A stretch of 64,000 nt of DNA from Eledone cirrhosa (lineage: Eukaryota), in NCBI GenBank assembly GCA_964016885.1, contig OZ024743.1, forward strand, positions 83,452,001-83,516,000, given 5' to 3'. Under the pieces are notes generated by a model. That model was not told the origin of the DNA, ran no database searches, and saw nothing but the letters and a program-made list of their open reading frames with translations. Below are positions 9,180-58,845 of the stretch, in pieces. The position numbers were made by a program, and so were the translations under genes. Numbering within the stretch: position 1 is the first letter of the stretch; every line of letters begins with the position of its first letter.

Positions 9180-9273
9180 ACCCCGACAGCTGAGCTCAAG
9201 CCGTTTCGACGGCTAATTCTGGACTAAATGAAAATTTATCCTGGTATTTAAATAGCCGATCTTCTCAAGGGGT
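9180..9273 (-). ncRNA. Type I hammerhead ribozyme, U3-A8 core variant (inverted pLTR copy)
   Basis: Reverse complement of 11680-11773. Confidence 0.75.
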
Positions 9274-9945
9274 AATTCCATATATGGTCAAAGTGATTGT
9301 CAAAAATCAGTAGTAATTCTGTGGTTGCAAATTAGTAGGGGAGATGGTGGCTAAACCTGCCAGTAGGAGAAAGAGGGGAGGGGGTGGAGTAGACCCAATC
9401 AAGCATTGGTAGTGCCAGCTACAGCTGGGCATGAGGTCAAAGAAAATACTGGGGAGGGGGAGGGGGAGGAAGTCGGAACGGTAGGTAGAACAATGGGGGG
9501 TAGAAATATATAGGAAAGAAAAAATACTGAGAGTGAAGAAAAGCAAATAAGTGTAAAGAAAAAAGTAAAGTAAATTCTACGACCTAGGTCTCTAGCTATT
9601 GTTAGGCTAGAATAAATAAATAAATAAATAAAGAAAGAAAGAAGTAAAGAAAGAAATAAAGAAATAACGAAATAAGTAAATAACGAAATAAGTAAAAGAA
9701 CTAGGTAGGACGGGATAGGCAAGGACCCTTTAAGAGGTATAAGTACGTAAATGATACGGTGACGGGTCAACAAAAGGAGCCAAAATACTAAAGAGACTAC
9801 CACGAAATAAACAATAAAGGTTTCCATCCCGGGCACAATGCCAGCAACCACCCATGCAGCAAAGTGAACTAGTACGAGATAATAATTCTGAGTCCCGAGA
9901 AAAATATATACTAATGTTAACTCTAAAACATCTAAAACAAGCTAC

Positions 9946-10596
9946 ATGAAACTATTCTTTAGGCTCATTGAAAAACACTTCCCATTACAACACCGCTACC
10001 ACAACATAATTAACAAAAATACCATCAAACTCTCTTACAGCACTACACCAAACTTCGCACAAAACATCGTCTCCTCTAACAACAAAAAACTCAACCCCGA
10101 TGGCAGAAATAACCTAAATAGCAGTGGAGAACCGACCAGGAGGTGTAACTGCCCGGATAGATCCATTTGCCCACTCGACAATAGATGCAGAGACCGTAAT
10201 GTGATCTACCAGTGCAACGTGAGGACGGATACCTCCAACAAAGCCTATATAGGACTTACCGCATGTGACTTCAAGACCCGGCTATACCAACATAGACATA
10301 CCTTCCGAAACCCGGCCCGGCGTCACGCCACTACACTTTCGGGCCACATATGGGACCTCAAGGACAACAACATCACCTATGATCTCACTTGGAGATTACT
10401 GTCCAGAGCCAATTCTTACACGGGAGGACGCCGTCCGTGCAATTTATGCTCGGAGGAAACTTTACAAATGCTGTTTTCGACGGACCAACTCCTAAACAAG
10501 AAAGATGAACTGGTTACTGCATGTAAACATAGATTGCGTAGGACTTACCTCGCCCTCAAACCCCATAATGACCCGGGGGGTAGACTAGGGCTATAA
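9946..10596 (+). CDS. C-terminal part of a PLE polyprotein: linker plus GIY-YIG endonuclease (Naiad-like)
   Basis: NKNTIKLSYS, CNC..CPL...C, VIYQ...AYIGLT..FKTRLYQH, LSGHIWDLK, CNLC, LLNKKDELVTACKH; RT domain lost by 5' truncation. Confidence 0.9.
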   Translation: MKLFFRLIEKHFPLQHRYHNIINKNTIKLSYSTTPNFAQNIVSSNNKKLNPDGRNNLNSSGEPTRRCNCPDRSICPLDNRCRDRNVIYQCNVRTDTSNKAYIGLTACDFKTRLYQHRHTFRNPARRHATTLSGHIWDLKDNNITYDLTWRLLSRANSYTGGRRPCNLCSEETLQMLFSTDQLLNKKDELVTACKHRLRRTYLALKPHNDPGGRLGL

Positions 10597-11679
10597 CACC
10601 CCATTTGCCGATTTTGCAATGGGTAACCCCTGCTTGCCAAGGGAGACGTAAGATCTTCTTTGTATTCTTTTATCGCTTCCTTTATTTCCTTCCCTCCTCT
10701 CTCCTTAGTCCTTCTACCCCAGCTCTTCTCCTTTGTCGGCGTCTTTTCTCGCCCACCCGAGGCTGCCCTTTGGCCCCTTGTAGCCTTAGTACCCCCACCC
10801 CCTCCCCTAGTCTATGATAGATTTGGCGGACTCCGCCTTTTATAGCAGTTGGTTTAGACCCCGGATACTTGTCCCCTTTTTCCGACCGCTCCCACTATTC
10901 TCTGTGCCCTCTATATTTCTTAGTGGCACTTATGCCTTATTTTTTCGTTTCAGTATTTCTTTCTTCGCTTTTCTTTTGGGCGGGGTGGATTCTGAATTTA
11001 TTTTTCCGTATTCTACCTTTACCTCGTTCGAACTTTCATGTAGCTTGTTTTAGATCTTTTAGAGTTAGCATTAGTATATATTTTTCTCGGGACTCAGAAT
11101 TATTATCTCGTACTAGTTCACTTTGCTGCATGGGTGGTTGCTGGCATTGTGCCCGGGATGGAAACCTTTATTGTTTATTTCGTGGTAGTCTCTTTAGTAT
11201 TTTGGCCCCTTTTGTTGACCCGTCACCGTATCATTTACGTACTTATACCTCTTAAAGGGTCCTAGCCTATCCCGTCCTACCTAGTTCTTTTACTTATTTC
11301 GTTATTTACTTATTTCGTTATTTCTTTATTTATTTATTTATTCTAGCCTAACAATAGCTAGAGACCTAGGTCGTAGAATTTACTTTACTTTTTTCTTTAC
11401 ACTTATTTGCTTTTCTTCACTCTCAGTATTTTTTCTTTCCTATATATTTCTACCCCCCATTGTTCTACCTACCGTTCCGACTTCCTCCCCCTCCCCCTCC
11501 CCAGTATTTTCTTTGACCTCATGCCCAGCTGTAGCTGGCACTACCAATGCTTGATTGGGTCTACTCCACCCCCTCCCCTCTTTCTCCTACTGGCAGGTTT
11601 AGCCACCATCTCCCCTACTAATTTGCAACCACAGAATTACTACTGATTTTTGACAATCACTTTGACCATATATGGAATT

Positions 11680-11773
11680 ACCCCTTGAGAAGATCGGCTA
11701 TTTAAATACCAGGATAAATTTTCATTTAGTCCAGAATTAGCCGTCGAAACGGCTTGAGCTCAGCTGTCGGGGT
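11680..11773 (+). ncRNA. Type I hammerhead ribozyme, U3-A8 core variant
   Basis: acccc-UUGAGAA-gatcggcta...tagccgtc-GAAA-cggct(tgagctc)agctg-UC-ggggt; predicted cleavage after GUC at 11768. Confidence 0.75.
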
Positions 11774-56627: not shown

Positions 56628-56676
56628 ATGTATATATATATATATATATGTAAAAAGTAAACATAAATAACACACA

Positions 56677-58083
56677 TGAATATGTCATTTATTTTGTCTG
56701 ACCTGTTTAGCTTGACTTGTTTTTTGGCTTAGGTGGTTAATGGCTTCTTGACCGCCTTCTCAGTTTGTATGGCCTTTATAACCTATCTTTATTGCTCTGG
56801 TCTCTTTAGCCCACGGAGCGCTTGCCAGCATGACTCGGAATTTACGTTATGTTTCGCTTTTTCTACCCGCCGAAATACAAACATCGCTGAATTTATATTT
56901 ATATTAATCTCCCGAGTCTTACAATTAACCTGTTAATAATTCTATTGACAGATTAATTGCATAAGTTTATTTTAAAAACTACCTGGTCGAGAGCTTATTT
57001 GATTTGTGCTATTTATGCAATTTTTTGCATGGATTTACACATACTGAATTCATTTGCCAAAATCTGGGGGTTTTCCCCTGTGAGTTACACATGTGCTTTT
57101 ACAAAACACTGTGTCATCCACAACACTGGCGCAGAACAAAATACCTGTTGATAACGTGATATTTCTCGTTCGATCATTATACCAAAAGCTTATTGTTTTA
57201 AGCAGACAGTATTATTGATTTAGGTGTCACAGAAACCCTGTACTGGATTTTACCATCAATTCCAAGGGTCCAGGTTTGCTATATATATATATATATATAT
57301 CAATTTTATAGTTCTGGTATGTCAAATTAATACCATAGAACAACCACTGTATCATAGACACCCTATATATTTCCAGGGGTACTTAGTACCTGTGGGGATA
57401 TTAACTTCTTTTAATATTCTCCGTTATGTAGAGAACAAATCTGTTGTTCTATTTAGCTGCTATTTTTAGTGGTGAGGTAGACAATGCGTCTATGTTTACT
57501 TCCGCTTCTACTATGGGCTGGTTCATGCATAGGTCAAAATTTCGACCCCATTCGATCCTGTGCTAGCCGGCAGATGGCAATATATTTTGCCGTTCCTGGG
57601 ACTTTTTGTCCTAGGAAAGGAAAATGCTCTCTGATGATCTAAACTTTTCCATTGGAAGTCCCTAGGGATCTCCAATCTTTTGTGAAGTGAAACCGTCGGT
57701 AAAAGCAATTGGAATAGGTAAATATTTAAATTATATTTTTTAATTTATTTTAAAAAATTGTTTGAATCTTGCTTGCTCCGCTTATCTCAATTATATATAT
57801 ATATATATATATATATATATATATATATATATATATATATATATATATATATATATATATATATGAATATGTCATTTATTTTGTCTGACCTGTTTAGCTT
57901 GACTTGTTTTTTGGCTTAGGTGGTTAATGGCTTCTTGACCGCCTTCTCAGTTTGTATGGCCTTTATAACCTATCTTTATTGCTCTGGTCTCTTTAGCCCA
58001 CGGAGCGCTTGCCAGCATGACTCGGAAATTGCGTTACGTTTCGCTTTTTCTACCCGCCGAAATACAAACATCGCTGAATTTAT
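56677..58083. repeat. ~220-bp direct repeat (56677-56897 and 57863-58083)
   Basis: Near-identical copies flanking about 1 kb that includes a hammerhead. Confidence 0.85.
57625..57707 (+). ncRNA. Type I hammerhead ribozyme candidate
   Basis: tgctct-CUGAUGA-...-GAAA-ccgtcgg-UA-aaagca; stem II imperfect. Confidence 0.55.
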
Positions 58084-58502
58084 ATATATATATATATATA
58101 TATATATATATATATATATATATATATATATATATATATATATATATATATACGTAGCCGATCTCTCAAACTTTTACGAGGCGCAGAGGGGATAAAGTTA
58201 ATACAAACAGTTGTCTGCTCATGCACATGGGTGCTATAAAATAGCTATAAAATATAGGGTGAAGACCCTTAGAAACGGAAGAAAACGTTGCCATCGACCG
58301 ATACGATGGCGATACCGACGATTGCGACAAAGTTCTCCAGGAAAGTTAACCAGGAATCTTTAAAAATTCTCCCACCGAAGTTAACAGAGAACTTACTAGA
58401 TCTACCAAATCAGAACATTATAAAATTAAATCAAATTGTTTAGAACTACAAGTGAAGTTATTCTTTTCCTTTTTTTCAAATATATATATATATACACACA
58501 TA

Positions 58503-58845
58503 TAGGAAAATAGGAAAAGAGCCAGGACCCCGACGGCTGAGCTCCGGCCGTTTCGACAGCTAGATCCGAAGTAAGCCACGAGTATTAGAACGGCGGGAAT
58601 CTAGCTCAACTTATCAAGGGGTACAGTCCATATATGAGCATGCAGTGAAAGCCAAAAAAGCAAAAATATCTAAGCAAAAAATGTGTTTACGCATGGTGGG
58701 TTAAAAATCTAATAAGAAACAGGACCTTGGTAGTAGTGCCGGGATTTAAGTGTTGGTATGGGTCGAAGAGGGCTCCACTATGGAAGAACAAAGAGGGTGT
58801 GGTAAGATACCAGGTGGATCATAACGCACCAGAGTACTCAATACA
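58503..58845 (-). mobile_element. Penelope pLTR fragment (second U3A8 subfamily) with the tail sequence placed upstream
   Basis: Hammerhead at 58527-58622; tail at 58787-58845 in the same orientation. Confidence 0.75.
58527..58622 (-). ncRNA. Type I hammerhead, U3-A8 core
   Basis: acccc-UUGAUAA-gttgagctagat...atctagctgtc-GAAA-cggc(cggagctca)gccg-UC-ggggt. Confidence 0.75.

Follow-up and report, generated by a model that had tools for sequence, protein, structure and literature searches.

U3-A8 hammerhead folds of a Hydra-type Penelope-like element in Eledone cirrhosa, their mismatched sister subfamilies, and a likely RNA start inside the ribozyme

The hammerhead motifs described here lie in a 64,000-nucleotide stretch of the Eledone cirrhosa genome (GenBank assembly GCA_964016885.1, contig OZ024743.1, positions 83,452,001 to 83,516,000 of the forward strand), which we call the window, and their host, judged by its protein motifs and insertion style, is a very abundant Penelope-like element (PLE) of the Hydra type with the hammerhead at its 3' end. 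One insertion in the window comprises a 5'-truncated 3' part of the open reading frame (ORF; 9948..10596, plus strand), with a CxCx5C linker, a GIY-YIG-type nuclease (VIY...YIG), and CxxC and CxH motifs, followed by the 3' untranslated region (UTR) or pseudo-long terminal repeat (pLTR; 10597..11788, plus strand), which stops 20 nt past the predicted cut site in a (TA)n target (the "short" end). An inverted arm of the same insertion (9082..9951, minus strand) stops 100 nt past the cut site, likewise in (TA)n (the "tail" end). Such a truncated body to +20 with an inverted arm to +100, counted here and below from the predicted cut, is the usual form of the element, whose insertions stop at either distance in (TA)n targets. 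By eye, a stretch of the tail (CTCTAC...AAGTATTGAG.ACT; 9130-9165, minus strand) resembles the 3'-terminal part of the published Hydra-2_Amil consensus, and is possibly a clade-wide priming or binding signal. No AATAAA or ATTAAA was found on the sense strand between -1200 and +300.

A tandem array of the element gave a unit of 3,531 bp with a 784-codon frame (717 amino acids when counted from the first ATG). This frame carries RWR and DKT motifs, a C-terminal VIY...YIG nuclease, and the cysteine motifs CNCPDRSIC (CxCx5C), CNLC (CxxC), and CKH (CxH) around E and N, with no CCHH, and so resembles the Hydra clade as described by Craig et al. (2021; PMC8557442), for which a C-terminal GIY-YIG domain, DKT, RW(K/R), and the same three cysteine motifs are reported. 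Moreover, the (TA)n targets, the inverted 5'-truncated arm, and the tail on one end only are likewise among the features given for that clade (PMC8557442). Two traits differ, namely the length of the unit (3.5 kb here versus less than 3 kb) and the core, as the Hydra hammerheads in file S2 of that report are all CUGANGA, with a stem II of 3-7 bp, a loop of 3-10 nt, and a minimal stem III; both the length and the core are described as typical of the clade, not as defining it. Pfam gave no significant match for either the ORF fragment or the full ORF. Protein relatives are plentiful (2,203 at E <= 1e-30 among 8,000 scored candidates), with 39-53% identity in the best 120, and the family is a very young one, in that the best 150 genome matches of the 9948-10596 frame are 98-100% identical.

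A relaxed type I hammerhead descriptor, run over both strands of the window, matched exactly four complete folds, all with U3 and A8. The first-pass annotation had placed UUGANAA cores at these same coordinates in the pLTR of a GIY-YIG element, and its motifs, its stem letters, and its predicted GUC cleavage position (C17 of the first copy at 11768) all agree with our results. The copy at 11680..11773 (plus strand) belongs to the youngest subfamily, A1, and has the core UUGAGAA, a stem I of ACCCC/GGGGT, a long stem II arm, GAAA, GUC, a stem III loop with a GAGCUC palindrome, and a predicted cut after 11768. Its identical inverted twin at 9180..9273 (minus strand; predicted cut after 9185) belongs to that insertion's inverted arm. 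The other two folds have the core UUGAUAA, again with U3-A8, and are both on the minus strand: the one at 38506..38601, of the older subfamily C, has a partly decayed stem I and a private cgtc/gacg change, and the one at 58527..58622, of family D, has a different stem II. The motif is not a chance occurrence, since TTGANAA-N40-65-GTCGAAACG has 6,044 matches genome-wide versus 157 for the reversed control, and a tighter U3-A8 pattern has 4,533 versus none. Here, the UUGANAA core means that such copies are indeed invisible to CUGANGA searches, as had been predicted. An Rfam scan returned no hammerhead family among the best 150 of 183 matches, only microsatellite-driven miRNA matches. Folding-energy z-scores of the window copies are unremarkable (-0.75 to -2.17), and the minimum-energy fold is the hammerhead only in the 11680-11773 copy, with the other two distinct copies folding otherwise.

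As type I hammerheads, these folds have three stems around the core with the open ends in stem I, and in an alignment of 28 chosen copies from five families U4, G5, A6, A9, G12, A13, A14, A15.1-U16.1, H17, and G10.1-C11.1 are invariant or nearly so, while loop II is long and variable. Stem III is a helix of 5-6 bp with a 7-9 nt loop, which differs from the absent or 1-2 bp palindromic helix III of minimal dimeric PLE hammerheads, whose activity requires dimers, and the stem II arm is about 55 nt long. Nonetheless, dimers may pair by virtue of the GAGCUC palindrome, which is found in the stem III loop of 183 of 206 copies. Nor do the copies correspond to non-LTR retrozymes, which are non-coding tandem repeats with a whole hammerhead per unit (10.64898/2026.07.22.740005), for here the whole folds lie in a coding unit, and the short copies are inverted rather than tandem and are without the catalytic strand.

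In the same 28 copies, 82.5% of the stem cells are paired, against 25-49% in slid controls, and two-sided changes, most of them in stems I and II, occur in 38 cells versus 16.8 after shuffling; kinship among the copies inflates this figure. The first-pass claim that stem II changes while staying paired stands, two-sided changes separating subfamilies there and in stem I, and the claim of covariation was overstated for stem III, which is nearly invariant: cggc/gctg versus cggc/gccg is a one-sided change from G-C to G.U, and cgtc/gacg is found in one of 206 distinct 3' halves, namely the window copy itself. Among families with ORF identities of 55-70%, the stems, U4, G5, A6, A9, and GAAA are conserved, and the predicted share of the hammerhead fold is highest in the youngest subfamily (0.47 versus 0.08 or less elsewhere). 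Together with the U3 regained in that subfamily, this cross-family conservation and best predicted folding suggest that the fold may still be under some selection. RNAalifold did not recover the hammerhead and found instead a competing hairpin over GAAA. In predicted folding, the hairpin AGCCGU-CGAA-ACGGCU can hide the GAAA core and dominates in the C3.A8 subfamilies; AGCCGU is present on both sides of the stem III 5' strand (window 11738-11755).

Turning to the 3-8 pair, we counted its states genome-wide in a single fixed sequence context (A-C type). Here, U3-A8 occurs in 4,533 copies and U3 with a base other than A at position 8 in 54, while 1,450 copies have a base other than U at position 3. 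C3.A8 accounts for 94 of the first 100 of these listed, which extrapolates to about 1,360 copies, and C3 with a base other than A8 was found in 13, seven of them G8. A8 is thus fixed in this context while position 3 alternates between U and C among amplified subfamilies. Consequently, the Watson-Crick pair, which is present in the four window copies and the 4,533 genome copies, is mismatched in about 1,360 copies of sister subfamilies, and the first-pass reading of changes in the 3-8 pair and stem III as evidence of function is not supported. In fact, the argument from compensatory change to function is a weak one, given that the stem III double change occurs in one of 206 copies and that so many mismatched copies exist. 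We also considered whether the C3-G8 copies are a true double-revertant subfamily and rejected this, as seven among about 1,360 C3 copies equals the rate of G8 among U3 copies, a frequency that decay would yield; two of the seven fall within the C3.A8 grade.

In trees of the nuclease region, which left out copies with too little ORF (including 17 of 20 loci of one set), the C3.A8 copies form a grade flanked by two U3-A8 families, C on the older side and A, the youngest, on the other. Approximately unbiased (AU) tests reject a single clade for U3-A8 (p 3.9e-5) as well as for C3.A8 (p 3.2e-6). End branches lengthen from A through B and C to D0, which fits the order of these subfamilies in time. 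The old family E, for which a first search pattern had yielded only two copies, has G8 in 14 of 15 copies and C3 in 10 of 15, and U3.G8 is found in nine related copies with a family-D-type tail and in four D0 copies. Taken together, the core states are best read as having passed from C-G to U.G, U-A, C.A, and then U-A again. What speaks against this order is a tree of the 150 nt around the ribozyme (33 of 36 chosen copies), which has the same ladder on long branches and is rooted among C3.A8 copies, so that the direction of change at the 3-8 pair rests on the ORF tree, whose outgroup (family E) is an inverted ORF piece assumed to be part of that insertion. Under either rooting, going by these trees, elements that transposed carried a mismatched core.

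Far more numerous than whole ribozymes in this genome are their 3' halves. A 13-mer of the 3' half occurs 67,416 times (control, 3), as against about 6,040 whole motifs, although this ratio is an upper estimate since whole motifs were counted under a stricter pattern. Most copies are pieces of 60-140 bp that start at the AGT of loop II, often behind an extra G, and in 40 regions picked around non-whole matches, 64 of 66 halves stop 17 nt or less upstream of the 13-mer. A census of 319 distinct 3' ends from all fetched loci and the window found 125 whole, 8 starting at -89..-51, 144 at -50..-30 with a peak at -41, 15 at -29..-3, 4 at the cut site, and 23 farther downstream. Insertion ends therefore do not pile up at the GUC cut site (4 of 319), nor did the one RNA run carry a sign of cutting there, and loci not picked by the 13-mer gave the same picture (48 starts in the hot spot versus 3 and 2). 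The peak at -41 falls on the A of (T/C)AGT; across five families, no other column of loop II is invariant. In the window copy this A is at 11728, within TTAGTC (11726..11731, plus strand), a sequence that we take to resemble an initiator, while a TATA-like TATTTAAA (11699..11706, plus strand) lies 29-22 nt upstream, overlaps stem II, and may be a promoter element, though it varies in other subfamilies.

Several such micro-insertions are found in the window. At 11939..12000 (plus strand), an extra G (11939) stands right after a TA repeat and is followed by the ribozyme 3' half from AGT to the short end. Inverted pairs of family D micro-insertions lie at 7873..8071 (tail arm minus, short arm plus), where both arms start at -40/-41, and at 39925..40117 (short arm minus, tail arm plus), again with starts at -40/-41. 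Another with a tail, at 39088..39227 (plus strand), starts at -35, the position of a second breakpoint peak, and at 49615..49778 a tail piece (minus) is placed head to head with a short micro-insertion (plus). We collected 55 inverted micro-insertions, and in 43 of the 46 that could be classified one +100 (tail) end is paired with one +20 (short) end, which matches the anole element, for which two internal priming sites and nicks in both strands have been demonstrated (Frangieh et al., 2024; PMC11167929). At loci L214 and L153, the head-to-head junctions contain 15-17 consecutive A or T, which suggests untemplated tailing as the pieces were joined.

The extra G is of particular relevance, because an untemplated G is a recognised trace of a reverse-transcribed cap (PMC4859970). 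The base before AGT is T or C in all 80 whole copies, while a purine precedes AGT in 6,310 copies, being G in 87 of the first 100 listed (87 G to 13 A) despite the AT-rich setting. Among 73 inspected junctions, the inverted partner could have supplied 32 G and 3 A, and where it could not, 31 G (one locus counted twice) stand against 7 A (p ~4e-8). Moreover, one junction has the extra G on each of its arms, and elsewhere, for example at 11939, the G directly follows plain TA target sequence. Accordingly, the breakpoint pile-up likely marks the start of the element's RNA inside the ribozyme. A 13-codon upstream ORF is located in the tail, between this putative start and the main ATG (L013:5360-5401). 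Seven sequencing runs, examined as contigs and including one RNA run with a small share, display the same depth step near -41, the +20 and +100 ends, and the position-3 C variant, but are not independent support as they may come from the same organism or sample.

Several observations count against such a start. At unselected loci, G accompanies the -41 breakpoint in 6 of 8 cases versus 12 of 34 at neighbouring breakpoints, a borderline difference (p 0.056). G is found at -42 in none of the 80 whole copies, where a jump from cap-extended cDNA could have left it. Only one of 20 fetched 5' ends of long-ORF copies lies at the putative start (-40), with most continuing into the upstream pLTR, and the single RNA run gave one contig, which lies outside the ribozyme.

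On balance, we favour an account in which the folds are likely weak, dispensable, or protein-assisted cutters of the downstream end of the RNA, rather than strictly kept fast ribozymes, with the RNA starting in loop II. Transcription would begin at the loop II A (11728 or its equivalent) and yield a capped RNA, whose upstream ribozyme copy would be without the UUGANAA strand and unable to cut in cis. Because the RNA would start inside the upstream ribozyme, only the read-through copy in the downstream pLTR would be whole and able to cut. The element's protein would nick both target strands, and reverse transcription would start at +20 for one end of the insertion and at +100 for the opposite end, usually running off the capped 5' end to leave inverted micro-insertions. 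As both priming sites lie 3' of the cut, long copies would arise only if the RNA stayed uncut at its downstream ribozyme or if synthesis jumped from the 5' end to the corresponding stretch at the 3' end. Cutting would then not be needed in every cycle, and a mismatched C3.A8 core could have kept spreading over a long period until the pair was regained. Such optional cutting agrees with the anole element, for which ribozyme mutants were reported to have no effect on insertion in vitro and cutting needed the protein (PMC11167929).

The same scheme has a counterpart elsewhere. LTR elements prime near the 5' end of their RNA, make a minus-strand strong-stop DNA that runs off at the cap, and undergo a first strand transfer through the terminal repeat. 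The element described here would share with them the priming near the RNA 5' end, the run-off at the cap, and a terminally repeated stretch that could allow a jump; unlike them, it would use nicked target DNA as the primer at two sites, its short products are integrated in tens of thousands, and its jump is hypothetical. By a tentative and rather doubtful extension, the RNA would start capped inside the hammerhead and end by the cut in the downstream pLTR, so gaining a 41-nt terminal repeat through which strong-stop cDNA jumps, as in a stripped-down LTR element. Failed jumps would then leave the roughly 60,000 micro-insertions, pLTRs and tandems would result from repeated jumps, and the frequency of 3' cutting would be tuned by how strong the 3-8 pair is. 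Subfamily switches within -41..-1 proved uninformative on the jump, as upstream and downstream markers mostly travel together (79 copies).

Two other explanations concern the ribozyme itself. We think it unlikely that, as the first-pass annotation proposed, the ribozyme is fully functional and its 3-8 pair maintained without exception through compensatory changes, with C3.A8 chemically near-neutral (for instance, as a protonated C.A+ wobble). Such a reading would suit the conservation of core and stems across distant families and the run of states from C-G through U.G to U-A, as in textbook compensation, with U-A again in the youngest family, yet it has to accommodate about 1,360 mismatched copies across several subfamilies and the scarcity of insertion ends at the cut site. 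The single exchange G8A is reported to abolish cutting. Furthermore, U3-A8 is reported to be active in vitro (PMC3088659), whereas other single mutants at 3 or 8 are reported to abolish cutting (PMC11167929). Conversely, the fold might be a catalytically dead relic, its sequence kept for overlap with promoter, protein-binding, and priming signals, which we hold to be quite unlikely. In its favour, the fold shares or adjoins the sequence of the putative start, the TATA-like box, and the two priming sites, other predicted structures prevail in most subfamilies, frequently AGCCGU-CGAA-ACGGCU, and the mismatch spread freely; on the other hand, stems I and II have the two-sided changes between families given above (their excess over shuffles being inflated by kinship), stem II joins a strand upstream of the start with a downstream one, which a DNA promoter does not need, and the A8-compatible U3 was regained.

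A further alternative concerns the -41 boundary, which could instead reflect stalling of the reverse transcriptase (RT) within stem II, breakage of the RNA, or a splice acceptor (TTTTCATTTAG), with the G arising by terminal addition or from the inverted partner. The site does lie in a predicted hairpin arm (an RNA starting at AGT is predicted to form AGCCGU-CGAA-ACGGCU at its 5' end) and resembles a 3' splice site TTTTCATTTAG, the inverted partner could account for 32 of the 63 G, and the second peak at -35 is G-rich too. Set against these are the sharp upstream limit (144 ends, but 8 in the 39 nt beyond it), the same position in families A-D despite different loop II sequence and pairing, and the presence of the G where its neighbour is plain TA target as well as on each arm of a single junction. 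Splicing as the source of the G was rejected, there being no common exon sequence upstream of it. We regard this as the least probable of the explanations considered.

As for the core alone, U3-A8 is not rare, contrary to the first-pass annotation, with about 4,500 copies here, nor is it new. Natural U3-A8 hammerheads were described by Perreault et al. (PMC3088659), and for Penelope hammerheads the core was published in 2014 by Cervera and de la Pena, who reported it in Cercyon PLEs, along with about 1,300 hits in Schistosoma mansoni (PMC4209133). As described there, the Cercyon PLEs share with the present element a type I hammerhead in the pLTR, U3-A8, a longer stem II, a short stem I, a palindrome at helix III, and mostly solitary copies (PMC4209133). 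The element here differs in its full 5-6 bp stem III with a 7-9 nt loop, its stem II arm of about 55 nt, its Hydra-type host, and its amplified mismatched C3.A8 state. Poseidon of Anolis carolinensis is alike in that two internal RT starts downstream of the hammerhead define the tail, both target strands are cut, targets are AT-rich, and insertions span the cut site (PMC11167929). There, however, the ribozyme and the start of the ORF overlap and the tail measures 30-40 bp, while the RT starts of the present element are within the 5' UTR, 80 nt from each other, with genomic footprints that point to an RNA start inside loop II. Penelope of Drosophila virilis similarly has a TATA-less-type internal promoter with an initiator in the pLTR, which drives the downstream tandem copy (Schostak et al., 2008; PMC2377424). 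Its transcripts are described as starting before an intron that ends right at helix I, and so contain the whole ribozyme (PMC2377424), whereas the start proposed here splits the ribozyme.

The flagged U3-A8 feature is thus real and known in kind, and by itself of little importance, while its surroundings bear testably on an open question, that of the role of the hammerhead in PLEs and the origin of pLTRs, tandems, and one-sided tails, as framed in PMC8557442 and PMC11167929. What is new are the amplified C3.A8 subfamilies and the 67,416 3' halves with their breakpoint at the loop II AGT. In the open full-text literature we found no report of an amplified C3.A8 hammerhead lineage, though the supplements of PMC4209133 may list such variants, nor, with subscription papers outside the scope, of a transcript start inside a PLE hammerhead. 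One core pair has been varied naturally across the subfamilies (C-G, U.G, U-A, C.A, U-A), and their copy numbers serve as a measure of fitness; the run-off products, integrated in tens of thousands, place the likely RNA start at a single base within the ribozyme.

Some further observations concern related lineages and the rest of the window. Family D ribozyme ends are about 90% alike behind two very different ORFs, with identity to the family A ORF of 30-44% in loci L129 and L130 versus 56-73% in L128, which suggests, going by these comparisons, that a 3' end may have been swapped between Hydra lineages. A separate family at L147:4190-4270 has a canonical CUGAUGA core and a long stem II, and is unrelated in sequence to families A-E. 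Decayed non-LTR fragments are found in the window at 16279-19400 (minus), 19475-20275 (plus), 52352-54524 (minus), and 12852-13304 (plus), which, from motifs in their translations, we take to be R2/CRE-like (RT and nuclease), RTE-like, and CR1/L2-like (APE-RT). Long near-perfect inverted repeats at 4839-5393 and 50672-50758 are probably foldback or MITE-like elements, and a repeat of about 190 bp recurs more than 10 times in the window, first at 6422-6631.

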